From an uncultured Enterobacteriaceae bacterium (GTDB taxonomy: Bacteria; Myxococcota_A; UBA796; GCA-2862545), in the NCBI GenBank assembly GCA_964396405.1, contig CAYNFK010000006.1, positions 7,971-71,970 on the forward strand: DNA of 64,000 bases. Reading direction: 5' to 3'. Below, piece by piece: positions 2,128-41,957 of the stretch. The first letter of the stretch is position 1, and each line of letters begins with the position of its first letter. The translations under genes and the position numbers were made by a program. The notes beneath the pieces were generated by a model. That model was not told where the DNA came from and did not search any database. It was given only the letters and a program-made list of their open reading frames with translations.

Positions 2128-2427
2128 ATGCGCCTCCCGACCCTCCTGCTGCTCTGCGCCTGTGGTTCCACGCCGGCGTCGTTCCAGACCGACTACGCCA
2201 CCCGCAGCTGCGAGGTGCTCGACGAGCAGTGCCGGCCCGAACAGCTCCCGGAGCTGTGCCGCAGCATTGGCATCGCACCGCTCGCTGAGCCTGTCACTGC
2301 CTGCACGTTCGACACCCTCACGGCCGATGCCTGCCTCAACGGCGCGTGGTCCTGCGGGGAAGACGGCGAGGTGGTGCCACCCGCCGCGTGCGCGCGCGTC
2401 TGGACCTGCCCCGAACAAGATGGGTGA
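2128..2427 (+). CDS. small Cys-rich putative lipoprotein
   Basis: The N-terminus [14 protein letters not shown] is lipobox-like. The mature part has 8+ Cys. The stop overlaps the next ATG (ATGGGTGA). Confidence 0.5.
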
Positions 2428-3454
2428 ACCGCCTCCGAGCGCCAAACGGCCCTATCGACCCGGCCGGGTCTGGGCCGAGCGCGTGGGCAAGCTCACGGTG
2501 ATGGTCGCGCTCTTCGTGTGCACCGGCGAGCTGGCGATTCGGTGGCTGCGTCCGTCGCCGAGCGTCTTGGTGGTGCGTCCCAGCGGCATCCTGGCCAATG
2601 TAGCGAAGAACTTCGCCGTGGTGGATGGCCATCCGATCTGGGCGGATCGAGACACCGAGACGAGGCTGAATCCACCCTGCGCGCCCGACGCGCCCGAGGT
2701 GTGGTTGGTCGGTGACTCGATCTTCTTTGGCGTAGGACTGGAGCCCTCCGCTTCGCCAGGCGCCCAGCTTCAGCTCCTTCTCGACCGCGCCGGCGCTGCA
2801 GCTTGTGTGCGAAACCTCTCCCAGCCCGGATACGGCGGGGCCGCCCGCCATCGGGCCTTCCTGGCCGAGCTGGAGCGGCGTCGCCAGCCCGACGTTGTGG
2901 TGATCGAGAGCTGGGAGAGCGACCCCATGACCCTCACACGCTTGGACGACGCGTGGTACGCGCTCGCGGATGTGCGCACCGACGCGTCGGGCTGGCCGGC
3001 GCCGCCTGTTTCCGTCCCCACCTGGGCTCACATCCTCGCGTTCCGTCACTCCCGGCTCTGGTGGTATGCAACGCTCACGGCGCAAGTCAGCGATCCCGAC
3101 GCGATGACTGAGGCCCGAGCCACCTACCGCAAGCAGCACTACGTCCCGATGATTCGGCAGGCGCAGGCCCTGGGCGCTCGGGTGGTCACGTTCGTGATGC
3201 CACGACTCGACCGGCCCTTCGCTGCATCGGTGTCGTCCAGCTGGGAAGCCACCGACGAGCGCGCCTTGCTGCGTGAGGCCAGCGCCGACCTCGGCGTGCC
3301 CGTGATCGCGATCGCCGACCGTCTCGTCGACGAGGACGTGACCGAGCTTCGGCAGGACACCTGCTGCCATGTGTCTCCAGCGGGCGCCGAGGCCTACGCA
3401 CGCGCCATGCTGCCCGAGGTGCTGGCAGGGCTTCAGCGGACCGCGCCGCGGTAG
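2420..3454 (+). CDS. SGNH/GDSL-family hydrolase, membrane anchored
   Basis: Internal ATG of ORF 2078..3454. There is a TM segment (LTVMVALFVCTG), a GDS block (WLVGDSIFFG) and a C-terminal DxxH-like block (DTCCHVSPAG). Confidence 0.7.
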   Translation: MGEPPPSAKRPYRPGRVWAERVGKLTVMVALFVCTGELAIRWLRPSPSVLVVRPSGILANVAKNFAVVDGHPIWADRDTETRLNPPCAPDAPEVWLVGDSIFFGVGLEPSASPGAQLQLLLDRAGAAACVRNLSQPGYGGAARHRAFLAELERRRQPDVVVIESWESDPMTLTRLDDAWYALADVRTDASGWPAPPVSVPTWAHILAFRHSRLWWYATLTAQVSDPDAMTEARATYRKQHYVPMIRQAQALGARVVTFVMPRLDRPFAASVSSSWEATDERALLREASADLGVPVIAIADRLVDEDVTELRQDTCCHVSPAGAEAYARAMLPEVLAGLQRTAPR

Positions 3455-3457
3455 CGG

Positions 3458-4939
3458 CTACGGGCAGTCCCACACGGTGTACGCAGGAGACTCGAGCCGC
3501 GCCGTGCAGCCCTCTCCGAGCGTGGCGGGGCGGTTGCGGTCGAAGGCCACGAGCAGCGCTGGACCTGCAGGCCGGGCATCGACCCCGCGCCACGTGAGAT
3601 CGCCGTGTGCGTAGCAGGCCCGCTCGTTGTTGCAGACGCCCAGGTGGTCGTAGGCCGAAGGCGCCTGCCCTGACGCCTGGGTCCACAACCACCCGGCCGC
3701 GTAGGCCGGGAACACCAAGACGGGCCGGCCCTGCGACCAAGACGCTGCGTGGTCCAAGAAGTGCGGCATCGCCTCCCGATCCGCGAGCTGACCCAGCACC
3801 AGCCGCTGCGCACCCGCCCAGCCGGGCAGCACCAGCGCGAGCAGCAGCCCCCAGGTCGGGAGGCGCAGCCACGCCCGGGTGAGCAGCGCCGGCACCGACA
3901 CCAGCAGCGGGAGCAAGAACACAGCCAGCTGGCTCGCGGCGTGCGGTCGCACGTACTGCCCTTGGGCCGCCAACCCAAACGCCAGCAGCGTCGACGCAGC
4001 TCCCACCCCTGCCACCTGTCGGGCCGTCGACTGCCACCGCAGGGTGACGAGGTGCAGCAGCAGCACACCGAGCACCAGGCCGCCCAACCACACCTGGGCG
4101 CGCGGGGGTTCCCCGCCCAGCGCTCGGGTGAGCGCGCCTGCGTTCTTCACCAACCACGGAGGGGCCTGGAGGCCCAGCGAAGCGAGGCGCAGCACGGTGT
4201 CGAGCGGACCATCCGGCGACGGCACCCGGCGACCCGAGCCCATCAGCACCCGGTCCAGCCACGGCACGAGCACCAGCACCGCCGGTGCGCCCACGACAAG
4301 AGGGAGCCGCCACGAGCGCGTGCGCACCGCACCGAGGCCCAGCAGCGCCGCGAGCGGCACCACCGCCACGTAGTGCAGCTGAACCCAGAGCGCGCCGAGC
4401 AGTGCCACCCCCAGCCAGCGGCCACGCCCCCCCTGTTCGAGCGCTGGCACCAGCACCCTCTGCAGGCCCAGGCCCACCAGCAGGAAGGCCGCGTAGGACC
4501 GGTGCAGCGTGGAGACATCGAGCAGCACAGGCAGGAGCGCCAGCCCGAGGCCCGTGAGCAGGCCCGCCACCGGGCCACCGAGGCGACGCCCCACCCCCAC
4601 GCCCGACGCCACAGCGACCGTGCCCGACACGATCGCCACAGCCCGTCCCAGCGTGATCGCGCCCACCCCTGGACCCCCGAGCCAGCCCAAGAAGCGCCAC
4701 AGCGGCGGGTTCACCGCGTTCTCGGGATCGAGGACCAGCGCCCACAGGCCACCGGCCTGCAGGTTGCCGATCTCATCGGGCGTGAGGCCCGCGTCCCACC
4801 ATGGCACCCGCATCGCCAGCGCGAGCAACACGAGCGCGACCGTGAGGATCGCGGTGGCGACAGGCTCGCGGGTCAGAAGGTCTCCGTCACCACGTCGGAC
4901 ACGCGGCAGGAGGCTGCATCCACCGCCACAAAGCGCCAC
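3458..4939 (-). CDS. polytopic GT-C-type (ArnT/PMT-like, GT39/83-like) membrane glycosyltransferase
   Basis: About 12 hydrophobic segments. A DE motif follows the first TM segment (WWDAGLTPDEIGN). It sits next to a GT2 polyprenyl-phosphate glycosyltransferase-like gene. The start is uncertain; a CTG at 4876 would overlap the upstream stop. Confidence 0.65.
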   Translation of the reverse strand: MALCGGGCSLLPRVRRGDGDLLTREPVATAILTVALVLLALAMRVPWWDAGLTPDEIGNLQAGGLWALVLDPENAVNPPLWRFLGWLGGPGVGAITLGRAVAIVSGTVAVASGVGVGRRLGGPVAGLLTGLGLALLPVLLDVSTLHRSYAAFLLVGLGLQRVLVPALEQGGRGRWLGVALLGALWVQLHYVAVVPLAALLGLGAVRTRSWRLPLVVGAPAVLVLVPWLDRVLMGSGRRVPSPDGPLDTVLRLASLGLQAPPWLVKNAGALTRALGGEPPRAQVWLGGLVLGVLLLHLVTLRWQSTARQVAGVGAASTLLAFGLAAQGQYVRPHAASQLAVFLLPLLVSVPALLTRAWLRLPTWGLLLALVLPGWAGAQRLVLGQLADREAMPHFLDHAASWSQGRPVLVFPAYAAGWLWTQASGQAPSAYDHLGVCNNERACYAHGDLTWRGVDARPAGPALLVAFDRNRPATLGEGCTARLESPAYTVWDCP

Positions 4940-7101
4940 GACGTGCCCGCGAGGCTCGGAGGCGGCCGTCCGGTGCGTGTGGCCACCGTATCCTCACCCA
5001 CCACCGCTACGGCGAGCACGACAGCGCCCTTCAGCGGCATCGACGCCGTGGGGCATCCCGGCACGGAGACGAGGCCCTGACGCCGGGCTGCATACCAAGT
5101 GATCGAGCCGCCAGGCGTGGCCCCCTGCACCCGCAGCGTGTTGGTGACGCCCGCCGTGCCCGGCGTGATCGGCGACAGGACGAAGTCGCCAAGCTGACAG
5201 GTGGCGGTGCAGCCGTCCCCATCGATCGCGCCGCCGTCGTCGCAGACCTCGCCGCCCTCCACCGTGCTGTTGCCGCAGGTGGCCGCGCAGTCGGGCGTGC
5301 CATCGCTGTTGAGGTCGACATCGGGCGCGCCGCAGCCGCAGTCGCCGGGCTCCACCTTGTCGGGGTCGGCAGGACAGCTGTCGTCGCAGTCCTTCGTGCC
5401 GTCGCCGTCGCCATCGGTGTCGGCGGTTCCGCACCCGCACACGCCCGGTACCACCTTGGCGGGATCGGAGGGACAGGCGTCGCTGGCGTCCGGAGTGCCA
5501 TCACCATCCCCATCGGGAGCGGGTCCACCCCCACACGCGCTCGATGGGGTGAGGCGGACGGCATCGGCCACCACGTAGGCGCCGGCGGCCGTCCAACGCG
5601 ACAGCAGCACCTCGTTCCAGCCGGCGGGAAAGCGCCAGGTGCCCAAGCGGTTCCACTGGCTGCCCAGCGCGCGCTGGTCCACCGAGGCACGGCCCAGCTC
5701 GGTGCCCGACGGATTCAGGGCCACGTAGGTGGCCGCGGGCGCGCGGTCGCTGGCCGACGTCCACCAGGCTTCGACGTCGTAGCAGGTGGAGGCCGCGTTG
5801 AGGAACCGAAAGTGCGCGGCGTCGCTCACCGCCTCGGTGGGGGCCACGAGGTAGCCGGTAGACCAGAAGCCGCCGACGTTGGTGCTGCTGACCCAGTTGG
5901 CCGAGGCCGTGATCTCGGCGGTGGCCGTGTCGTTGGAGGCGTTGTTGCTGTCGATCACGCGCTGACCGGGCACGGGCGTGGTGCCGCCCCCGCACGCGAC
6001 GTCGACGCGGCTGAGGTAGTCGGTCCAGGGCCAGTTCGCGCCGGGATCGGTGCGGTTCCAGGGCTGGAGCTTGCCGTGCGCCACGATGTGGTAGCGGTCG
6101 CGGGGCACGGTCTGGCGCTGGGTGATGCCGCAGGTGAGCTCGGCCGACTTCTGAATCAGCGTGCTGTTCCAGGTGGACTGGCTCGCGTAGCCGGCGTGCT
6201 CGATGCCCACCGAGACGGTGTTCATGCTGGTGCCGTTGCGGTTGCACTCCACGTTGTCGTTGTTGACGCAGTCGTAAGCGGCCGAGATGTGCCAGGCGCG
6301 GTCGGACTCGTTGACGAGCTGGCTGATCTCCGTGCCGGCTTCGTTCACGACGTAGTGCGCGCTCACGCCGGAGGCGCTGTTGACCAGCCAGCCCCAGCAG
6401 CCTGAGTACACGCCTTCGCAGGTGTGGATGATCACGAAGTCGACGTTGCTGCCGCTGCGGCTGTTGAAGTTGGGCGAAGGTCGCCACACGGCGTTCGACG
6501 CGTCCAGGCCCACCCGATCCACCACGGCCGGGAGCGGAAAGAGCGCGTCGGCGTCGTGCTTGCCGAGGCTTGCGCCTTCCAGGATCGCGCCGGTGTGCAG
6601 GCGCGCGTACACCGCGTCGTGCACGTAGCTGGACCGCACCTCGGCATCGGTCTCGCCCGTGTAGTCCGCCACCACCGGGGCCCACTCGCCGAGGGAGGCC
6701 GGCTGCAGGCCCAGAACGGCCGCACGATCCGCCAGCCACGATGCTGCGGCAAGCACGTTGCTGTCGAGGTCGTGCTGCACCAGCTCCGGATCGAGCCCAG
6801 CCAGCGCCGCCGCCTCCTCCAGCGCACCTGTCCGTAGGCCCATCACGCCATAGGCACGCGGACGCCCCGGGAACTCCTCCTCGCCCACCACCATCTGCAT
6901 GCCGGTCTCAGCGAGCGCGATCGCCACCAGCAAAGACGCCGGCACGCCGGTCGCCTGCTCGGCCTCGTCGTACGGCGCGAGTGCGTCCCGGCCGGGCCGC
7001 TCGCCCACAGACACGTCCTCACCGACCGCACCTTGGGAGGGCACGTCAGCGCACGCGCTGAGCAGCATCCCCGCTCCTGCAACCCACCAACCCCACCGCA
7101 T
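4873..7101 (-). CDS. multidomain cell-wall hydrolase lipoprotein: SLT-like + N-acetylmuramoyl-L-alanine amidase (Amidase_2) + carbohydrate-binding-like domain + Cys-rich/TSP3-like repeats
   Basis: Start taken at MRWGWWVAGAGMLLSAC (lipobox). IALAETGMQ..AYGVMGL is SLT-like. FVIIHTCEG..AHYVV..WHI..SVGIEHAG..IVAHG is the amidase_2 pattern. The C-terminus carries DGDGDGT..CP.DP repeats and CGNSTVEGGEVCDDGGAIDGDGCTATC, a myxococcal Cys-rich repeat. Confidence 0.85.
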   Translation of the reverse strand: MRWGWWVAGAGMLLSACADVPSQGAVGEDVSVGERPGRDALAPYDEAEQATGVPASLLVAIALAETGMQMVVGEEEFPGRPRAYGVMGLRTGALEEAAALAGLDPELVQHDLDSNVLAAASWLADRAAVLGLQPASLGEWAPVVADYTGETDAEVRSSYVHDAVYARLHTGAILEGASLGKHDADALFPLPAVVDRVGLDASNAVWRPSPNFNSRSGSNVDFVIIHTCEGVYSGCWGWLVNSASGVSAHYVVNEAGTEISQLVNESDRAWHISAAYDCVNNDNVECNRNGTSMNTVSVGIEHAGYASQSTWNSTLIQKSAELTCGITQRQTVPRDRYHIVAHGKLQPWNRTDPGANWPWTDYLSRVDVACGGGTTPVPGQRVIDSNNASNDTATAEITASANWVSSTNVGGFWSTGYLVAPTEAVSDAAHFRFLNAASTCYDVEAWWTSASDRAPAATYVALNPSGTELGRASVDQRALGSQWNRLGTWRFPAGWNEVLLSRWTAAGAYVVADAVRLTPSSACGGGPAPDGDGDGTPDASDACPSDPAKVVPGVCGCGTADTDGDGDGTKDCDDSCPADPDKVEPGDCGCGAPDVDLNSDGTPDCAATCGNSTVEGGEVCDDGGAIDGDGCTATCQLGDFVLSPITPGTAGVTNTLRVQGATPGGSITWYAARRQGLVSVPGCPTASMPLKGAVVLAVAVVGEDTVATRTGRPPPSLAGTSWRFVAVDAASCRVSDVVTETF

Positions 7102-33067: not shown

Positions 33068-34981
33068 TCAGGGGCAGGCGGGAACCTCGACGGTCCACAC
33101 CCCCTCCAGCGTGTTCCCTTCTACGGTCGCGGTGCCGCGGCAACCCACAAAGGTCACCTCGATGCGTGCGCGCACGGCGCCTTCGGGCACGCCGAGGATC
33201 AGCGGGTTGTTGGTGCCGGGCGCCCCCACCGTAGACGCCACCGAGATCAGGATCTCCTCTGTGCCGGGCAGCACGGCGTCGGCCGCATCGTAGAAGACAG
33301 GGCGCGCCACGGCGCCTGCCACCGACAGGTCGGTGCGCGGCCCCACCTGCAGCGCCAGCCAGCGTGTGCCCTCGGCGGCCTGCCAGCGCACCACCTGCGC
33401 TTGGGCATCCGCGGCCTCGGCCTCGGCGTGGCTGCTCCACCACACCAGCACCGACCACGCGCCGCTGGGGTCCTGCACGGGCTGGAGGAAGCTCGCGTAG
33501 TGATGGGCCGCGGGCATCGGCAGGTCCACCACCGTGAACCGACCGCAGGTCGTGTCGTAGCAGTCGGGGCGCTGCAGGTAGGCCCGCTGGTTCATCTTCG
33601 GAAAGGGTCCGGCATCGCGCCCGAAGGTGACCAACACGTCCATCCAGCCATCGGCGTTCACGTCCCACTGCGCGCTCGGGAGCCACGCGATGTGGGTGAC
33701 GGGGGATGGCGGGGCCGCCAGCGCCCGGCTCAGCGGACCGGACTCCTCGAAGCCGTCGCCGGCTGCACGGGGACACAGCACCGAGACCGGCCACCTGCTC
33801 GACAATGTCGACACCAGCAGGCAGTCCTGCACCACGCGACCGGTCGGCGTGTCGGTGGGGAAGCGCACCATCGACGCCCCCATCGGCGTGAAGCAACCCG
33901 GCGACGACGACCCGCACACAGGCTCCAGGAACAGCGCGCCGTCCACCACGGCGCCCGTCAGGGAGTCGCGCGTGGGCTCGATGAACGTGTCGGGAACGCG
34001 CCGACCGCCCGGGAGGTACCAGCTGTAGTCGTGCGTGACGCCCGGCAGCACGCCGGTGGCGAACAGCAGGGCCCACGGGCGCACCGTCGGCTGCAGCGCG
34101 TAGGGCACCAGCGACCAGCCAAAGATGCCCGGCACGTCGTCGAAGCGCCCGACCTCCAGCACCAGGTCGTCGGTTGTGGCCGTTCGCAGCACAGCCAGGA
34201 TGTGGTCCGACCGATCCGCCTTCCACACCGGGAACACCAGGTCCATCCGGCCGTCGTTCTCGAGGTCCACCACCCCCAGCGGACCCCCGTCGGCGAACGA
34301 GAAGGCGGGCCCGGCCGTGCGGTAGGGTGCCGGTGTGAACTGCCCGGTGCCGTCGTTCCACCACAGCGGTGCCACCGCATCCGCCTCGTCGCCATTCACG
34401 ATGCCGCCCACGAGATCCGCGTCCCCGTCCCGATCCACGTCGAGCAGGGTGACGGTCGACAAGGAGCGCGTGATCGTGCCGCCCACCAGCCGGTCGGACA
34501 GCGGCTCGCCCACCACCAGCGTGCCCAGCGCCGGGTCGTAGCGGACCCATGGCGAGATCACGTCGACGCCATCGGCGTTCGGGCACACCTGGTTGGCCAG
34601 CAGCGCCTCCACGTGACCGTCGCCGTCGATGTCGGCGATGGCGATCGCCATGGCGCGGGCGCGGCGGCCGTCAGCGACGAGGGGCACACAGTCAGCGAGC
34701 GCCGCTTGGAGTTCATCGGAGAACAGCACGCCGTCGAGGGTGGGTCCGGGCGGCAGGTCGGTGTCGGCGATGGTGTCGGTGTCGGTGTCGGGAGGCGCGT
34801 CGGTGTCCGTCTCGTCGGTGGTGTCGGTCTCGGGAGGGGAGTCGGTGTCTGTGTCCGTGACCGTGTCGGTCTCGGTCTCCGTGACGTCGTCGGTGGCGGT
34901 GTCGGCAGCGTCCGGCCTGGGCGGCACGCAGCCGACCGCGAAGATCCACGCCGCAAGTGTAGGAGGACCCCTGTTTCTCAC
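33068..34981 (-). CDS. FG-GAP/VCBS repeat lipoprotein with an Asp/Thr-rich linker
   Basis: AWIFAVGC lipobox and a DTDTD linker. Repeated [29 protein letters not shown] and [10 protein letters not shown] Ca-binding-type loops. Confidence 0.75.
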
Positions 34982-35048: not shown

Positions 35049-36650
35049 ATGCAGTGCCGTCACCACCCCATCTGTCCCGGTTGCCCCCTCCTCGACCGGT
35101 CCTACGAAGAGCAGCTCCAGATCAAGCGCGACCGCTTGGATCGGGCGCTCGCGCGCTACCCGCACTTGGGCCTGCGCGCGCCGCCGGTGCGTCCGGCGCT
35201 GCGCGAAGAAGGCTACCGCCACCGGCTCAAGCTGCCGGTCGATGTGGGCCGCGACCATGTGGCGGCCGGCCTCTACGACCGCCGAAACGGCAAGATCGTC
35301 GACACGCCCGACTGCCCCGTGCTGGTGGAGGGCCTGCGCGAGACGCTGCAGAACGTGCTGGTGTGGCTGCGCAACAAGAGTGGGGTGCACAGCATCGACC
35401 TGCGCTGGTCGGACGCGAGCCAGGCGGCCCAGCTCGTGGTGGCCTGCGAGGGCGCGAGCCTCCCGGGTGGCAAGCGCAGCGCCGAGGCGCTGTGCAAGGC
35501 GGTGCCGGCGATCGTGTCGGTGGCGGTGTCTGAGGCCGATCCCGAGGGCAAGCGCGTGATGGGGCGCTCCCCCACCGTGTTGTTCGGCGAGCCGTGGATC
35601 GACGAAGCCATCGGCAGCACCCACTACCGCCTCCTGCCCGGCAGCTTCTTCCAGGCCGACCCCCAGAACGCCGCCGTGCTGCACGAGCGGGTGAAGGCGC
35701 TGGTGGGTCGCGCGAGCACCGTGCTCGACCTCTACGCGGGCGTGGGGGCGTACGCGCTGGCGCTGGCGCCGGGCCGCGAGCGCGTGCTGGCCGTCGAGGA
35801 GGTGCCGCAGGCCGCCGAGTCGGCGCGCGCGATGGCTCCGCCCAACGTGGAGGTGCTCACCTCCCGGGTGGAAGACCTCAACTTGCGCGAGCCCTTCGAC
35901 GTGGCCGTGATCAACCCCGCCCGTCGCGGCAGCGATCCCGATGCGCTCGGTCGTCTGGCTTCGCTGGCGAAGCGCCTCGTGTATGTGTCGTGCGGTCCGG
36001 AGGCCCTCGCGCGCGACCTCGACATCCTCGCAGCGCACGGGATGAAGGTGGTGGCGATGGAGGCCATCGACCTGTTCCCCCAGACGCCCGAGGTGGAGAC
36101 GATCGTGCACCTCTCGAAGGGCCCGCCGCTGAAGACCTGGCCCGTGCAGGGCGGTCGTGCCGGTGGACCCTGGCTGGGCTTCCCGAGCGGTGCCGTAGGA
36201 CGTCCCGACGAGGTGCTCGTGCTCGTGATCGGCGACCCCGGTCCGAAGGGTGCGCTGATGGGCGCGAACTTCGTGCGCGAGGGTCTGTTCGCCGGCCACG
36301 CGCTGCTGCGCCTGTTCCTGCGGGGTCCCCTGGAGCTCGCGCTGGGCGCGCTGCAGCGTAAGGGCCACAGCGTGGCCGGCACCGACGGCAAGACCGCCCG
36401 CTTCTTCGCCGAGAAGACCGGCCTCGTGCGCCCGTTCGTGCACATCCTGCGCGCGGGCGACGCCTTCGCGCCCCCGCACGGCGACCTCACCGAGGCGCTC
36501 GACACCCTGGCCGATCACCGCCCGAACCGTGACGGGCGTCCGCCGAAGCCTCCCAAGTCATCGAACCTGGTTCTCCGCGATGGACCGCCGCGCCGGGACG
36601 GGCCGAAGGGGCGGGGCGGGCCGCCGAGGGGGAGGCCGAAGGGGCGGTGA
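35049..36650 (+). CDS. RumA/RlmD-like SAM-dependent RNA (uracil-5) methyltransferase fused to a degenerate RluA-like C-terminal region and an Arg/Gly/Pro-rich tail
   Basis: N-terminal Cys cluster (CRHHPICPGCP..DCP), FFQADP, the SAM motif VLDLYAGVGAYALALA, VINPARRG and YVSCGPEALARD. After that come GRPDEVLVLVIGD and LLRLFLRGPLELALGALQRKGHSVAGTDG..VRPFVHIL, which resemble pseudouridine synthase motifs. Confidence 0.8.
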   Translation: MQCRHHPICPGCPLLDRSYEEQLQIKRDRLDRALARYPHLGLRAPPVRPALREEGYRHRLKLPVDVGRDHVAAGLYDRRNGKIVDTPDCPVLVEGLRETLQNVLVWLRNKSGVHSIDLRWSDASQAAQLVVACEGASLPGGKRSAEALCKAVPAIVSVAVSEADPEGKRVMGRSPTVLFGEPWIDEAIGSTHYRLLPGSFFQADPQNAAVLHERVKALVGRASTVLDLYAGVGAYALALAPGRERVLAVEEVPQAAESARAMAPPNVEVLTSRVEDLNLREPFDVAVINPARRGSDPDALGRLASLAKRLVYVSCGPEALARDLDILAAHGMKVVAMEAIDLFPQTPEVETIVHLSKGPPLKTWPVQGGRAGGPWLGFPSGAVGRPDEVLVLVIGDPGPKGALMGANFVREGLFAGHALLRLFLRGPLELALGALQRKGHSVAGTDGKTARFFAEKTGLVRPFVHILRAGDAFAPPHGDLTEALDTLADHRPNRDGRPPKPPKSSNLVLRDGPPRRDGPKGRGGPPRGRPKGR

Positions 36651-36656
36651 CGACCC

Positions 36657-36833
36657 CTACACCACCGGCTCCCGATCGAGGTCGGCGTAGGGGTAATGGC
36701 CGTGCTCGATGAGCTTGGCGAACAGGGCCTCAGTGCCGTTCTCGCGGGCGTAGTCCAGCTCCGAGCGATGGATGCGGACGGCAGCCATCAGCCTGGCATG
36801 ATCGTCGAAGGCGGCGCACTGCTCGGCGTCCAT
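36657..36833 (-). CDS. small hypothetical protein (58 aa)
   Basis: Only the C-terminal part of ORF 36657..36995 looks protein-like (MDAEQCAAFDDHARLMAAVRIHRSELDYARENGTEALFAKLIEHGHYPYADLDREPVV). The call is weak. Confidence 0.3.
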   Translation of the reverse strand: MDAEQCAAFDDHARLMAAVRIHRSELDYARENGTEALFAKLIEHGHYPYADLDREPVV

Positions 36834-37419
36834 GACCAGCCGGGCCGTCACGGGGCGTTCGCAGGCATGGCCCACCCGACGCCGTTGGCGAGCGAGCGGC
36901 TGGTGTGTCGAGGCAGTCCGGGCAGGGACGCAAGGACCCCACGACTCGTCGCCGCCGGAGACGTACACCGTTGTGGCATTGGTCGTGCTGACCAAAAAAC
37001 TGGGACGCCGTCGCGCAAGTCAGAGCCACGCCGTTTCTGATCGGCCTCCACTTCAGCGAGCGCGACATGGCCTGGATGACGAATAGCGCGCTTCGGTCCT
37101 AGCCACCCCAGCTTCACCGCTGGCGGAGCGCTCGTGAGGTTCCGCGGCCCATGTTGGGCCTTGTTCGTGGCATGCCAGCTTGTGGCGGGAGTCTCCCAAA
37201 GTCGGTCGCGGACGCCCCTTCGACCATCGCAGCCTCGCTAGTGCCGTCGAGACGACCGACCATTCCGGGGTGCCCAGAGCGCATTTGGGCCATCCACGTT
37301 CGTCCGTCTCTTGCCCCCGCCGGACTTGAACCCCATTCTCCTGATGACATTGCAGCCGAGGAGCCCCATCGGACCGGATGGCATCGGCGGAATTCTTAGA
37401 TTCGGTTCCACAAAGTGCC

Positions 37420-37447
37420 TTGACACGCCAAGCGGCGCGTCTAGAGA
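37420..37447 (+). promoter_or_regulatory. candidate sigma70-like promoter (TTGACA-N16-TAGAGA)
   Basis: Read directly from the sequence, about 35 nt upstream of the GGGAGGAG RBS and ATG at 37482. Confidence 0.3.
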
Positions 37448-37481
37448 TCCACGTCGCATGAATCGCGGGAGGAGACGTCAG

Positions 37482-37757
37482 ATGGCGGAAGACAAGAAGG
37501 GGCCGATGGAGAAGACTGGTGGCGCAGGCGCCGCCTCGGGCAGAGCCGACGGCGCAGGCGCGTCATTTTACGGTATCGCGAGTGATGGTGCCGGCTCGCG
37601 GCGCATCCCGATCCAGAAGGGTGCTGGCGCAGCCGGCGGTCTGGGTTCGTCCGACCCATTCGCAGCGGCCGCGATAAATCCGCAGGGATCGGCGGGGGGA
37701 CCCAACCCCGCGCCCGGGTCGAGCGGTTCTTCGACCAACGGTTCGTCAAAGAAGTGA
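37482..37757 (+). CDS. small Gly/Ala/Ser-rich, probably disordered protein (91 aa)
   Basis: Internal ATG of ORF 37311..37757, preceded by GGGAGGAG. The sequence is MAEDKKGPMEKTGGAGAASGRADGAGASFYG...GSSGSSTNGSSKK. Its stop overlaps the GTG start of the CHAT gene (GTGA). Confidence 0.45.
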   Translation: MAEDKKGPMEKTGGAGAASGRADGAGASFYGIASDGAGSRRIPIQKGAGAAGGLGSSDPFAAAAINPQGSAGGPNPAPGSSGSSTNGSSKK

Positions 37758-39151
37758 CGGCACGGGTCTCCCAGGAGCGAACCGTCGTCCTACTTCAAAC
37801 CGGCGATTTACGCGAGTACATCGTCGTCAGGGTCGAGAACTCTGGGACGAACGATGAGATCTTCAAGGAGTACTGGGAGTTCTACATCACGGACTCCGTG
37901 AACCGCTACCCGTACGCCTCCGATGGCGTCCTCGGTGAGGCCCCGCCACACTACAAGTGGGGGCCGCTCCACGGAAGGTTCGTCATCGCAGTCCAGCTTC
38001 GCGATCGCACGCTGCGACCGGGCGAGGTCCGCTACATCGGGGCCGGCGCGCTCCGGGTAAAGCGCGCGACGGTCGACGGGGTCGCGATCAGTCTCGACGA
38101 TCCCTGCTTGGAGTTCGACGGGCCAGAGCAGTCGTCCGTGCACGTGGTGTTCCCATTTCGTGCAGAGGGGTGGGCGATCACCACAAAGGACATGACCGCA
38201 TGTACTCACGTGGCATCTACGTCGTTCATCCCAAGTCCGGACGAACCGCGGCACGTCCAGGTACGCGGGACTCACCCCCGCCGGCCGCTGTGGACCGAAC
38301 TCGTCAAGCTCGATGTCCGGGTCGCCATGCTTCGGGCCGTCGTCGCGGCCGACGCGTGCGGAGAGGATGTGGCCATCCTCGCGCCTGCGCACGACGACCC
38401 GCTTCGCTCGCAGTGGGACAGCCTGTTAAGCGAAATCCGCTTCAATTCCGCCGAACCCGTCGCGACCCGTCAAGCCAGTTACCGGGCCCACCTTCGGCGA
38501 CTGCAAGACAGCCGTCCAGCGTTGGCGGCAAGGATGCCGTCAATGCCCGATACCGTCAGCGTGCTCTACCTCGCCTCCAGCCCCGTCGACGCGACGACGC
38601 TCGGGACCGACGAGGAAGCGCGAGAGATTCGTGACGAGCTCCAACGCGCCGAACTTCGCGACAAGTTCGAGTTCGTCGTCCGTCAAGCCGTCCGCGCCGA
38701 GGACCTGCAACGCCACGTCCTACGCGAAAGGCCCGTCGTGCTCCACTTCAGCGGCCACGGAGCAGAAGACGAAGGGCTGGTCTTCGAGGATCGCGACCGC
38801 CTCGGCGTAATTGTGTCCGCCGGTGCACTCGCCCGGTTGCTAAAAGCGGCCGAAGGTCCGACCCGCGTCGTGCTGTTGAACGCCTGTTACTCGGCCCATC
38901 ACGTCGAGGAGCTCGCCAAGGCCGTCGACGTGGTCATCGCAATGACTCGCGTCGTGCAGGATCATGCGGCAGTTCGCTTCGCGGCAGCGTTCTACCGAGC
39001 CCTCGCGTTCGGCAGTTCGGTGTCCGCAGCTTTCAATCTCGCGGTGAACGAGCTGGAGATACTCGGCATCACTGGTGAGACCGACGTTCCGTCGATGCAC
39101 ACGCGCGCAGGGGTCATCGCCAGCGACATCTTCCTCGCGCCACCGCGGTAG
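37754..39151 (+). CDS. protein with an unassigned N-terminal ~270 aa and a C-terminal CHAT (caspase-like) protease domain
   Basis: The C-terminal 190 aa reads SVLYLASSP...RPVVLHFSGHG (His), TRVVLLNACYS (Cys) and VVIAMTRVVQDHAAVRFAAAFYRALAFGSSVSAAF, the CHAT tail pattern. Confidence 0.8.
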   Translation: MTARVSQERTVVLLQTGDLREYIVVRVENSGTNDEIFKEYWEFYITDSVNRYPYASDGVLGEAPPHYKWGPLHGRFVIAVQLRDRTLRPGEVRYIGAGALRVKRATVDGVAISLDDPCLEFDGPEQSSVHVVFPFRAEGWAITTKDMTACTHVASTSFIPSPDEPRHVQVRGTHPRRPLWTELVKLDVRVAMLRAVVAADACGEDVAILAPAHDDPLRSQWDSLLSEIRFNSAEPVATRQASYRAHLRRLQDSRPALAARMPSMPDTVSVLYLASSPVDATTLGTDEEAREIRDELQRAELRDKFEFVVRQAVRAEDLQRHVLRERPVVLHFSGHGAEDEGLVFEDRDRLGVIVSAGALARLLKAAEGPTRVVLLNACYSAHHVEELAKAVDVVIAMTRVVQDHAAVRFAAAFYRALAFGSSVSAAFNLAVNELEILGITGETDVPSMHTRAGVIASDIFLAPPR

Positions 39152-39174
39152 CAATCGCGCCGTCTGAACTCGAC

Positions 39175-39219
39175 CGCGGCCCGGCGTGCATGCACCCGCC
39201 CACGTTGGAAGGGCCCGCG
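39175..39219. terminator. GC-rich hairpin between convergent CHAT and RT genes (candidate bidirectional terminator)
   Basis: CGCGGCCC...GGGCCCGCG forms a stem with one bulge. It encloses the 10-bp palindrome GTGCATGCAC. There is no U-tract. Confidence 0.3.
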
Positions 39220-39240
39220 AGAACGATCTAGAAGCCTGAC

Positions 39241-40854
39241 CTACGAGTACGGGTCCGTCCCGCGCTCGCGTAGAGTCTCCGCGTTGATGCGGGGCGGCGC
39301 AGGGACGAACTGCGCATCCGCGAGGTGCTCGATGAAGCCCACGAGTGTCTCACCCTCGAAGTCCTTCTTCTTGATGGTGCGGTACTCGGGTGTCCGTTCA
39401 GCCGATTGCAAGGCCTGAACCGCGATCCGACGGGCGCGGGTCACCATGTGCGAGGCGTCGGCGTTTACGTACCGCTTGATGCTGTGGTGGTCCGTGTAGT
39501 CGCCGCACTGTGCCAAATAGAGCGTCGCCCCCATAACCTCTGGGTCGTGGCCGTCTCCCGAAAGCAGCTGGTGCGCCCGTCTCGTGATCGCAGCGCTCTG
39601 AACCTTCATCTGCGTTGCGAGCAGCCAAAGCTGGTAGTTCTGCCAAGGGTAGACGAAGATCGGGTCCCCGGTCAGCATCTTCTCCAGTTCCCGACACTCG
39701 CGGTCCCCGAACGGCATCACCGACAGGAAGCGGCACAGCTTCTCCGACGCCTCCGGCCACCGACGAAGGGCACCCAACGCAAGCAACGGCAACTCAGCAA
39801 TTAACGGGTGCGTCACATCCTTGTACTGCATGATGTCGACGATGCGGCCCAAGCTAAACCTGAACACCGATTCCCCGACGCCGCCCTGAAGAAGCAGCTC
39901 GTGCATCTTGTCGAAGAGCAAGGCAGCGGCCCGCTCGACCGTACCACGATTTTTCGCGCCGTTGAGCAGGCCCTCCACGGTCTCGAAGAACGGATCCGGC
40001 AGGTCATGCACCTTTTTCATCCCGTCGTCGTCGGGGCCGACAATTACCGTCTTCGAGGCGTTCACATCCAGCCCGATATTGCGCAGCTCGTCGATGAGCG
40101 CGATCATCGCCCGGCGAGCAGTTGCCTCGTCGGGCGCCACGATTTTGAAGTCGTCGACCCATCGAAAGCAGGTGAATCCCATCCGCTCCATCTTTTTGTC
40201 GATGGAGTCGAGGAAGACATTACCAAGAAAAGAGCTGGGGGCCATATTCTGCGGCAGGCCGACATCGCCCTGCGGCGCCCATACCTTTAGGCAGTCGAAC
40301 AATGATTTCAGGGTCGCATCAATCGAGGGCGTCATCTCGCCTACAAGAATGCCGCGAAGGCGATCCGAAAGGGTCCGAAATCGGAGGTTCGAAAAGTAGG
40401 AGGTGATGTCCGTCTTGACCAGCCAGCTCGCCGGCTCCTTGACAAGCAGATCCCGCACGTCACCGTTGAACTTGTTCCACTGCGCGGGGAACTGGCGAAG
40501 GAACATCCAGGGCGAGTCCGGCGAGCGCAGCCGGTACCCGTATGAACTCGGACTGAGCTTCGCGTCGACCAGCGGGGCGAGCTTGTCCACGAGGGCTTGG
40601 TACACGATGCGGTCGATGGGCCGCATCTGAACAGCGTGCCTCAACGTGTAGTTCGACTTGGGGATGTACAGATCCACAGCGGGCAACGGAATAAAGCTGT
40701 CCGCCGCCTTCTCAAGACGAAGCACCGTGTCGTCCATCGATGCGAAGAGGTCGGCACACCCCAAGGGGTCCGGCCAGAAGTCGTCGTGGATGTCGTTCTT
40801 GTACCGCTTGAGCGCGAGCTTCCAGTCAAGCTCAAGTGCCGTTAGGTCGATCAC
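39241..40854 (-). CDS. reverse transcriptase, defence-associated (UG/Abi/DRT-like) type with a long helical C-terminal extension
   Basis: GTG start. RT motifs present: IPKSNYTLRHAVQMRPIDRIVYQAL; LVKTDITSYFSNL; GLPQNMAPSSFLGNVFLDSID; FRWVDDFKIV; GLDVNASKTVIV. About 250 aa of helical sequence follows. Confidence 0.9.
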   Translation of the reverse strand: MIDLTALELDWKLALKRYKNDIHDDFWPDPLGCADLFASMDDTVLRLEKAADSFIPLPAVDLYIPKSNYTLRHAVQMRPIDRIVYQALVDKLAPLVDAKLSPSSYGYRLRSPDSPWMFLRQFPAQWNKFNGDVRDLLVKEPASWLVKTDITSYFSNLRFRTLSDRLRGILVGEMTPSIDATLKSLFDCLKVWAPQGDVGLPQNMAPSSFLGNVFLDSIDKKMERMGFTCFRWVDDFKIVAPDEATARRAMIALIDELRNIGLDVNASKTVIVGPDDDGMKKVHDLPDPFFETVEGLLNGAKNRGTVERAAALLFDKMHELLLQGGVGESVFRFSLGRIVDIMQYKDVTHPLIAELPLLALGALRRWPEASEKLCRFLSVMPFGDRECRELEKMLTGDPIFVYPWQNYQLWLLATQMKVQSAAITRRAHQLLSGDGHDPEVMGATLYLAQCGDYTDHHSIKRYVNADASHMVTRARRIAVQALQSAERTPEYRTIKKKDFEGETLVGFIEHLADAQFVPAPPRINAETLRERGTDPYS

Positions 40855-40985
40855 ACACCCCCGGGGAAGCGGGTATCACGGCGCGCCAGAACGAGGACAG
40901 CCGCGGCACACCTGCACGTGGAAGCGGCCCCACCGCGCCGCACCATCGCCCCGGGCTTGCCACCCCGCTCCGCCATGAACGCCCC

Positions 40986-41822
40986 CTACGGACACCCCAC
41001 CACCACCTCCAGGTCATACGTCACACACCCCACCTCGGTCGTGTACACCACAAACCACACCCGCCGGTCCACCGTGCGCGTGTTGGTGAACGACACGGTC
41101 TCCACGTCCGCGGTGGTGTCGGACATGTCGAGCATCAGGTAGCTGCCGGCCTCATGCACCGACAGATCGAGGTCCTTGCTCGCATGGGCGAACGTAATCT
41201 CGGCGGTGAAGCTGCACCCCGCAGGCACCACCTGATCGAAATAGTCGACGTCGCCCGGCGCATGCTCGAGGGCGGCGTAGGTCTGAGCCACGCCGTTGGG
41301 TGGCACCGCCAACGGGGTGCCCGTCAGCCAGGTGTTGTTGAGCTCGAACGCATCTGAGCCGCAGATGCCGGTGAAGCCGCCCCCATCGGTGTCGCCGTCC
41401 GTGTCCGCGACGGTGCCGGTGTCGACCTCGGTGTCCACGTCCGTGTCGCCGTCCGTGTCCGTGTGCGTCTCGACCTCCGTGTCCACGTCGGTGTCGGGGA
41501 GCGCATCGGTCTCCGGGTCGGTGTCCGTCTCGACCTCGGTGTCCGTCTCCAGGTCGGTGTCCGACTCCACGTCCGTGTCCGACTCGACCTCGGTGTCCGA
41601 CTCCACCTCGGTGTCCGACTCCACGTCCGTGTCCGACTCCACGTCCGTGTCCGTGTCGCCCGGGGTGTCCGACTCGGTCCCGCTCGGATCGTCGGTCTCG
41701 ACCTCGGTGTCCGTGGCCTCCGCCTCGGTGTCGTCCTTCAGCCGGATCGACCTCGTAGTGGTGCAGGCCGCAAGCAGGCAGACGGCGAGCACGCAGCTTC
41801 GGGACGTCGACGTGGCGCGCAA
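40986..41822 (-). CDS. lipoprotein with a DT/ES-rich repeat linker and a C-terminal pre-peptidase-C-terminal-like beta domain
   Basis: ORF 40986..41942. The probable start is the TTG at about 41822 after GAGG, giving LRATSTSRSCVLAVCLLAAC (lipobox). (DTDVES/DTEVES)n repeats are present. Confidence 0.65.
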   Translation of the reverse strand: MRATSTSRSCVLAVCLLAACTTTRSIRLKDDTEAEATDTEVETDDPSGTESDTPGDTDTDVESDTDVESDTEVESDTEVESDTDVESDTDLETDTEVETDTDPETDALPDTDVDTEVETHTDTDGDTDVDTEVDTGTVADTDGDTDGGGFTGICGSDAFELNNTWLTGTPLAVPPNGVAQTYAALEHAPGDVDYFDQVVPAGCSFTAEITFAHASKDLDLSVHEAGSYLMLDMSDTTADVETVSFTNTRTVDRRVWFVVYTTEVGCVTYDLEVVVGCP

Positions 41823-41957
41823 GGGGACCTCGGCGGGGTGGTGAGCCCTAACGGATGGGCGCGTCGCAGACCCCACCACCCTGGACGGCCCGTGTTTGCA
41901 GATCGTGCCGCCGCCGCACCCAGGGTGCGTCACCGCGCTCACTGTCGGAGGTTCTTC

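Follow-up and report, generated by a model that had tools for sequence, protein, structure and literature searches.

Does a reverse transcriptase gene that lies tail to tail with the gene for a caspase-like CHAT protease form one immune system with it, or do the two share a site as separate units? The pair analysed here lies in a 64,000-nucleotide stretch of contig CAYNFK010000006.1 (assembly GCA_964396405.1, positions 7,971 to 71,970), deposited as an uncultured Enterobacteriaceae bacterium and placed by GTDB in Myxococcota_A. We refer to this whole stretch as the window. The initial annotation of the locus suggested an undescribed abortive-infection module made up of the reverse transcriptase (RT) and the CHAT protease, and named two independent systems in a small defence islet as the alternative. 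A comparison of gene neighbourhoods from both sides supports the alternative. The islet very probably holds two independent defence-type modules, which are neighbours by co-location and not parts of one system. Module A would be a single-gene Class 1 UG/Abi RT of the UG9 group, from a lineage that appears to have dispensed with a DNA polymerase of family A as its partner. Module B would be a cassette in which a small disordered peptide is coupled to a protein consisting of an N-terminal domain, a helical linker, and a CHAT protease. The principal features are as follows.

36651..40985, strand not applicable: lower-GC islet, between a U5-methyltransferase gene (ends 36650) and a lipoprotein gene (ends 40986)
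37482..37757, plus strand: small peptide gene, 91 amino acids, Gly/Ala/Ser-rich and of low complexity; ATG at 37482, Shine-Dalgarno sequence GGGAGGAG
37754..39151, plus strand: CHAT open reading frame, 465 amino acids
39152..39240, strand not applicable: convergent intergenic spacer, 89 bp, with no significant structure
39241..40854, minus strand: stand-alone UG9-group (Class 1 UG/Abi) RT, 537 amino acids; PADLOC RT_UG9_small E=7.6e-95

The reverse transcriptase and the CHAT cassette occur independently

We gathered 94 further UG9-like RT loci from genomes and metagenomes. Neither a tblastn search with the CHAT protein nor a CHAT-domain hidden Markov model (HMM) built from 120 homologues found a CHAT gene in about 97 UG9-like RT loci, apart from the window's own. 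On the cassette side, the closest full-length relative of the CHAT protein (P0015, 74% identity) is found in three contigs, each with an overlapping small open reading frame (ORF) upstream. P0015 is followed downstream by genes for a ParB-like and a trypsin/hydrolase protein, and no RT occurs there. Nucleotide homology between the window and the P0015 locus (75%) spans exactly positions 37481-39114: it begins at the ATG of the small ORF, stops shortly before the CHAT gene does, and extends no further. In the other six of the seven distinct loci that encode the N-terminal domain, tblastn and an RT profile found no RT. The initial annotation had asked whether CHAT and the small ORF recur around RT homologues. 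CHAT is absent there, and the small ORF is kept beside CHAT relatives, without an RT.

The arrangement of the genes in the window adds to this comparison. The RT and CHAT genes are convergent and are therefore not co-transcribed. The 89-bp gap between them is as first described. The hairpin that they were thought to share is not supported, as the spacer folds no better than shuffled versions of itself (-29.4 kcal/mol, with -29.9 as the mean of the shuffles; z=0.17), and a terminator scan found no terminator-like site in 39152..39240.

The RT and the cassette might still cooperate in this genome as a lineage-specific abortive-infection system, for example if a product of the RT activated the protease. 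Their separation by 89 bp in the same small, compositionally foreign islet would suit such a system, as would the lack of the usual polymerase partner beside the window RT. There is also a precedent for a protease link within UG9, the "large" form, a minority variant in which the RT is fused to a trypsin-like serine protease and a metallo-beta-lactamase hydrolase gene lies upstream (PMC9226505). UG9-large is the only described UG9-protease link, and its serine protease is fused to the RT N-terminus, whereas the window protease is a cysteine CHAT enzyme encoded on the opposite strand from the RT and with partners of its own. Against cooperation stand the complete absence of CHAT from the other RT loci and of RT from the other six cassette loci, the end of the cassette homology exactly at its two genes, and the convergent genes, which are not co-transcribed and have no common regulatory structure. 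The CHAT protein comes with a conserved N-terminal module and a peptide partner of its own, and the entire clade to which the RT belongs is stand-alone in variable contexts. We consider cooperation of this kind highly improbable. It is the RT-plus-CHAT module first proposed, which is not supported, given the match of the RT to UG9_small, the lack of CHAT at RT loci, and the lack of RT beside the relatives of the cassette.

A stand-alone reverse transcriptase of the UG9 group

The domains of the RT are listed below.

40039..40665, minus strand: RT fingers and palm, residues 64-272; Pfam RVT_1
40150-40155, minus strand: catalytic VDD (D234, D235), within the RT palm
39265..40026, minus strand: C-terminal alpha-helical repeat (alphaRep/HEAT-like) domain, then a conserved flexible tail; AlphaFold2 (AF2) model and profile matches

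The initial annotation had described a 537-residue RT with a complete palm and about 250 residues of helical sequence behind it, and both parts of that description hold. Motifs 1-2 and A-D are all present in the translation, Pfam RVT_1 matches residues 64-272 above its cut-off (E=7.7e-12), and D149, D234/D235, and K268 are invariant among RT homologues. The AF2 model is confident (predicted local distance difference test score, pLDDT, 89.2; predicted template modelling score 0.89) and shows an RT core followed by helices at about residues 277-530. A sequence profile of the RT matches artificial alphaRep proteins at positions 433-510. Because of the fold and these profile matches, we identify the helical sequence with the Class 1 alpha-repeat domain. 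The best full-length Foldseek matches of the model are DRT4/UG15, DRT6, AbiK, AbiA, and Abi-P2 (template modelling scores of 0.5-0.64 for DRT4, DRT6, AbiK, and Abi-P2).

By sequence, the RT clearly belongs to the UG9 group of Class 1 UG/Abi enzymes. When classified against profile HMMs with PADLOC, it falls cleanly into UG9-small, a known group whose homologues do not neighbour CHAT genes, an outcome that the initial annotation had itself named as speaking against its module. The RT_UG9_small match (316.7 bits) covers RT residues 2-487 and profile positions 3-496 of 541. UG9_large is the second-best model, with an alignment confined to the RT part of the profile (positions 241-727 of 772), and the best model outside UG9, UG21, scores about 106 bits lower (210.9 bits). 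The NCBIfam models for group II, retron, and Drt2-5 enzymes give scores far below their cut-offs. UG9 is a published group, the "family D" of Kojima & Kanehisa, and is enriched in defence islands without experimental validation (Mestre et al., PMC9226505); we found no experimental reports on UG9 in the literature searched.

Several other identities were considered and rejected. A group II intron enzyme is contradicted by the score of group_II_RT_mat (88.9 bits against a cut-off of 300) and a retron by that of retron_St85 (14.9 bits against 235), and no Rfam family occurs in the window. There is no long repeat pair near the RT of the kind expected for a diversity-generating retroelement. The RT is not of the UG9-large type, as it has no N-terminal extension and the gene upstream is a host lipoprotein gene. 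The earlier statement that the RT lacks the company of the well-described classes is thus correct for maturase, retron, and diversity-generating features, while the enzyme itself is a clear UG9-group RT without its usual polymerase. A noncoding RNA template was also looked for, and the window contains no Rfam family and no tRNA or tmRNA genes. The gap upstream of the RT measures 131 bp in the window and 16 bp in a relative (L011), and the genes downstream of the RT overlap it or begin within about 150 bp. These short gaps leave no room for a conserved noncoding RNA, which fits the untemplated Class 1 enzymes.

A UG9 lineage without the family A polymerase

A DNA polymerase of family A (PolA; PRK14975) adjoins 94% of UG9 RTs in complete genomes, according to the myRT survey (PMC8934634). 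In annotated plasmids, and also in locus L009, the canonical layout consists of RT and "DNA polymerase" genes that overlap by 8 nt. Among the loci gathered here, PolA lies directly downstream of the RT in 43, all with RTs at most 32% identical to that of the window. It is absent from 17 of 17 loci at 34.5% identity or more, several of which have 8 kb of downstream sequence, and tblastn at E<=0.01 found no PolA-like sequence anywhere in the 64-kb window. A neighbour-joining tree places the PolA-less loci in one clade, sister to the PolA-linked RTs, that comprises the window together with L004-L007, L010-L012, and L040-L049. Members of this clade classify as UG9_small as firmly as the PolA-linked RTs do, and the close relatives P0002, P0003, and P0006 are assigned to the same group as the window RT. 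Relatives of the window RT are few, even among 5.8 billion proteins, and the best is 40% identical.

An all-against-all comparison of flanking ORFs found no recurring neighbour protein in the PolA-less clade, and the downstream ORFs of L004 (244 amino acids) and L011 (220 amino acids), considered as possible partners, are unrelated singletons. RTs of this clade have beside them transposase fragments, toxin-antitoxin genes, or a large helicase/MZB gene with a HEPN gene after it.

With PolA missing here and present beside 94% of UG9 RTs in complete genomes, and with a SUFU gene remnant in the same islet, the RT could be read as a decaying orphan, a UG9 system that has lost its partner and its function. 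We give this reading very little weight. The RT ORF is neither truncated nor interrupted and encodes every catalytic residue, its AF2 model is confident (pLDDT 89), and the absence of PolA is common to a monophyletic clade of at least 14 distinct sequences, in which 88 columns are invariant across eight members at 34-40% identity. The clade also shares a C-terminal tail, EPxYV..PP..EDL..PSVY, that ends in a near-terminal Tyr. Such a clade with kept columns implies long-term selection without PolA. As judged from these sequences, the window RT has been kept as a stand-alone enzyme and is not in decay.

What such an enzyme might do is suggested by its structural relatives. DRT4 is a single-gene system that synthesizes random single-stranded DNA (ssDNA) without a template, primed from Tyr125, and causes abortive infection; the infected cell is killed once a DNA-binding protein of the phage shields this ssDNA from degradation (PMC12783706). 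Untemplated synthesis is attributed to Class 1 DRTs in a further report (PMC13174585). By analogy with DRT4/UG15, DRT6, AbiK, and Abi-P2, the window RT most likely makes untemplated, protein-primed ssDNA, and build-up of this ssDNA during phage infection would be toxic and lead to abortive infection. Priming might start from the near-terminal Tyr of the conserved tail; in the AF2 model, confidence is low for the last seven or so residues of the RT alone.

Canonical UG9 pairs of RT and DNA polymerase genes were also observed on conjugative plasmids. In Dinoroseobacter shibae pDSHI01 (L110) the pair adjoins relaxase and type IV coupling protein genes, and in Paraburkholderia sprentiae pl2WSM5005 (L111) it adjoins a PRTRC system. 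These plasmid-borne pairs raise the question of whether canonical UG9 systems serve plasmid biology instead of, or besides, phage defence.

A peptide-coupled N-terminal domain with exchangeable effectors

The cassette on the plus strand has the following parts within the peptide and CHAT genes.

37638..37682, plus strand: conserved peptide core GLGSSDPFAAAAINP, which fits G-x-G-x(2-7)-[DNS]-P-[FL]-x(3-7)-P
37754..38530, plus strand: N-terminal beta-rich domain (residues ~1-178) and helical linker (~179-259), a putative sensor/peptide-binding module
38531..39151, plus strand: CHAT (caspase-like) protease domain, residues ~260-465; Pfam CHAT E=1.8e-10
38756-38758, plus strand: catalytic His335 of the CHAT domain
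38885-38887, plus strand: catalytic Cys378 of the CHAT domain

The 465-residue protein has a CHAT domain by Pfam (41.2 bits, cut-off 24), and H335 and C378 are invariant in 25 homologues. Foldseek matches the domain best to SAVED-CHAT (8tl0; root-mean-square deviation 2.5 Å over about 207 columns) and then to caspases, with a probability of 1.00. The PADLOC SAVED_CHAT match is restricted to the CHAT part (profile positions 301-456), and a SAVED-CHAT identity was rejected since the N-terminal domain is not SAVED. We also considered a gasdermin-protease system; the sole co-oriented neighbour is the 91-residue low-complexity peptide gene, which has no family match. Upstream, the peptide gene has a strong Shine-Dalgarno sequence, and its TGA and the GTG of the CHAT gene lie within one 4-nt overlap (GTGA). 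The two-gene operon and the intact CHAT dyad described in the initial annotation are both upheld, and the peptide gene is, as judged from this layout, translationally coupled to the CHAT gene. Compared with its homologue in L001, the peptide is 81% identical in aligned columns, with in-frame indels only and a ratio of nonsynonymous to synonymous substitution rates of 0.146. The low ratio and the in-frame indels identify the small ORF as a real gene under purifying selection.

The first 266 residues of the CHAT protein have no match in a profile search of Pfam, PADLOC, NCBIfam, or PDB sequences. A word-indexed search with the N-terminal domain returned P0015 alone, and tblastn found the domain in no plasmid. 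Searched exhaustively with HMMER, a set of 1.84 billion representatives yielded about eight distant relatives of comparable length, at E=3.6e-8 to 5.6e-4. These share the N-terminal 200 or so residues and the helical linker, and their C-termini differ. P0134 and P0136 carry a TIR domain (Pfam TIR_2 7.6e-17 and 7.1e-12; PADLOC ThsB 2.5e-51 and 2.8e-36), and P0135 matches the C-terminal region of the Lamassu LmuA model (7e-16). P0138, P0141, and P0142 share a GRIDFLL…ELK motif with P0135, with weak family support. The same N-terminal domain and peptide thus occur with TIR or nuclease-like domains, from which we take the N-terminal domain to be the constant part, with a sensory or regulatory role, and CHAT to be one exchangeable effector. 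Stand-alone defence proteins are usually built in this way, from a constant module joined to a killing domain that can be exchanged.

The peptide is as constant a companion as the domain itself. In every N-terminal-domain locus (L001-L003, L106-L109, and L112 besides the window), between one and three small ORFs of low complexity immediately precede the gene on its own strand; they are 64-91 amino acids long where they could be delimited. The core motif is present once in the window and in L001, twice in L107, L108, and L109, and three times in L112, and L106 holds a variant of it, SAGISAANPFPLGGTP. As a regular expression the core gave 37 hits in the 2.03 million six-frame residues of the sequences analysed, against a background of 23. 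Six of the seven distinct genes have such hits in the 700 nt upstream of them, eleven in all after removal of redundancy, against an expectation of about 0.06. Taken together, the sequences suggest that the peptide, the N-terminal domain, and a swappable effector make up what looks like a rare and undescribed module, and neither the peptide nor the N-terminal domain falls under a model of Pfam, PADLOC, or NCBIfam.

We do not think that the peptide is a dedicated substrate of the protease. Since it accompanies the N-terminal domain whatever the effector, it most likely behaves much as an antitoxin would and binds to this domain, either to inhibit it or as a sensor ligand. The cassette would then encode a sensor-protease under the control of the peptide, and its proteolytic action would bring about cell arrest or death.

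Two further observations concern the loci of these relatives, among whose neighbours there is also an HNH gene. In L112, a stretch of 2.8 kb without called genes (2171-5001) holds three tandem motif ORFs, GVGVAAAPISPFAAQGRPP, GIGVRAAAQSPFASANVQP, and GIGVTAGPRSPFASAGIRP, so standard gene calling misses the peptide partners there. Positions 6994-16756 of L001, which encode a 1037-residue trypsin/alpha-beta-hydrolase, a ParB-helix-turn-helix-like protein, an unrelated 711-residue CHAT protein, and a 1565-residue ORF, look like a larger conflict island.

The function of the cassette need not be directed at phages. It could instead be a toxin-antitoxin, kin-discrimination, programmed-cell-death, or peptide-processing module. 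The small upstream gene that overlaps the effector gene by 4 nt resembles the layout of type II toxin-antitoxin pairs, and members of this CHAT subfamily occur in fusions with many adaptor domains (TPR, NB-ARC, TIR, EAD-type). The flanks of the window locus encode MopE, FG-GAP, and RCC1 repeat proteins, and a PAAR toxin gene lies beside one relative. Kin-discrimination and programmed-cell-death modules are typical of multicellular bacteria. The swapped effectors match components of anti-phage systems, however, namely ThsB and LmuA, and the neighbours of the relatives include an Eco57I-type restriction-modification gene, PemK, and ImmA/IrrE. A peptide-processing role does not suit the TIR and nuclease versions. 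We regard a role outside phage defence as unlikely, though it is the most serious of the competing explanations.

The islet and its surroundings

The two modules lie in an islet of about 4.3 kb whose composition differs from that of its surroundings. G+C content (GC) is 58-67% at about 36.7-41.2 kb and 70-74% in the flanks, and GC at third codon positions (GC3) is 0.78-0.81 for islet genes and about 0.90 for host genes. The low-GC islet without an integrase reported in the initial annotation was recovered: the ORFs scanned, namely those of the islet and the larger called genes at about 21.5-57 kb, include no integrase or transposase. No CRISPR or CBASS genes were found among the scanned ORFs around the islet. 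GC3 is similarly lowered in both modules, and base composition is therefore uninformative on whether they were acquired once or twice. A search for attachment (att) sites or direct repeats bounding the islet gave just weak 23-27-nt matches at 81-87% identity, which we judged to be chance.

One further feature lies at the left edge of the islet.

36657..36995, minus strand: probable gene remnant, SUFU-like end; Pfam SUFU E=1.5e-4, 22.2 bits, below the cut-off of 25

Only the C-terminal 50 or so residues of this ORF match the SUFU profile, at positions 122-172 of 172, and the Logan gene caller calls just its last 58 residues. By its sequence it is probably the remnant of an immunity-type gene.

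Ordinary host genes flank the islet, a U5 methyltransferase gene on the left and a lipoprotein gene on the right. The wider surroundings encode FG-GAP, MopE, and RCC1 repeat proteins, MatE, an aminotransferase, a vWA protein, and an ECF sigma factor. Long acidic Thr-Asp/Thr-Glu repeat tracts occur in two flanking host lipoprotein-like genes, both on the minus strand. In 33068-34981 the tract is at the N-terminus of the product, and in 40986-41942 it lies at 41374-41598, with 11 copies of a DNA repeat of period 12/18 nt.

An independently assembled 4495-bp Logan contig (L008, run SRR15237804) is 100% identical to window positions 36521-41015 and covers the low-GC islet with short parts of both flanks. 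Its extent could reflect strain variation or, equally, poor assembly of flanks with more than 70% GC. We did not take the coincidence of this contig with the islet as a sign of a mobile unit, as the high-GC flanks could fragment a short-read assembly.

Weighing the two-module reading

In its complete form, our reading holds that the cassette represents an undescribed conflict or anti-phage family in which one to three peptides regulate a sensor domain with a swappable effector, and that the RT represents a stand-alone PolA-less UG9 lineage that acts like DRT4 or AbiK. This complete form is tentative, and we place a little less than half our confidence in it. The narrower conclusion that the islet contains two independent modules is the firmer part.

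Several points weigh against these conclusions and should be read together. The separation of 89 bp within a 4.3-kb islet is compatible with functional cross-talk in this genome. The window RT has no close relative (best 40%) and hence no true orthologue with which to compare neighbourhoods, and many of the RT loci come from short contigs with little flanking sequence. The family of the N-terminal domain has few members, with about ten representatives and seven loci with context, and AF2 is unreliable for this domain (pLDDT <50 at residues 1-176, compared with 78-90 in the linker). The assignment of P0138, P0141, and P0142 as nucleases comes from a motif recognized by eye and a weak Pfam match (E=0.035). 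The mechanisms of both modules are proposed from homology, and for the RT no equivalent of DRT4 Tyr125 was found.

Relation to known systems and significance

The RT is a new member of a known group, UG9, and represents a variant lineage without the group's defining partner. It shares with other UG9 RTs its best full-length HMM match, its RT-plus-alpha-repeat architecture, and a location near other conflict genes. Canonical UG9 systems combine the RT with an overlapping family A DNA polymerase gene, whereas the window RT and its clade have neither PolA nor any fixed partner. In being a single gene that encodes a palm followed by a helical repeat domain, it is like DRT4 (UG15), DRT6 (UG12), AbiK, and Abi-P2, from which it differs in its UG group and with which it has 11-16% sequence identity.

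As for the cassette, it seems to vary the sensor-effector theme in a way not described before. The type III CRISPR-associated SAVED-CHAT, TPR-CHAT/Craspase, and the gasdermin-activating CHAT proteins likewise join an N-terminal sensor to a C-terminal protease with an intact dyad. The N-terminal domain of the cassette is neither SAVED nor TPR, however, its partner is a small disordered peptide, and no CRISPR, cyclase, TIR, or gasdermin gene lies near it in the window. Relatives of the cassette carry effectors like those of Thoeris (ThsB) and Lamassu (LmuA) without a ThsA, LmuB, or LmuC partner.

The failure of the idea of an RT-plus-caspase immune system spares a cloning campaign on the wrong unit. 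For UG9, a comparison of the PolA-less and PolA-linked lineages could reveal what the polymerase contributes. The cassette is a compact candidate for a new sensor-effector system with a peptide partner, outside the defence and domain libraries that were searched.

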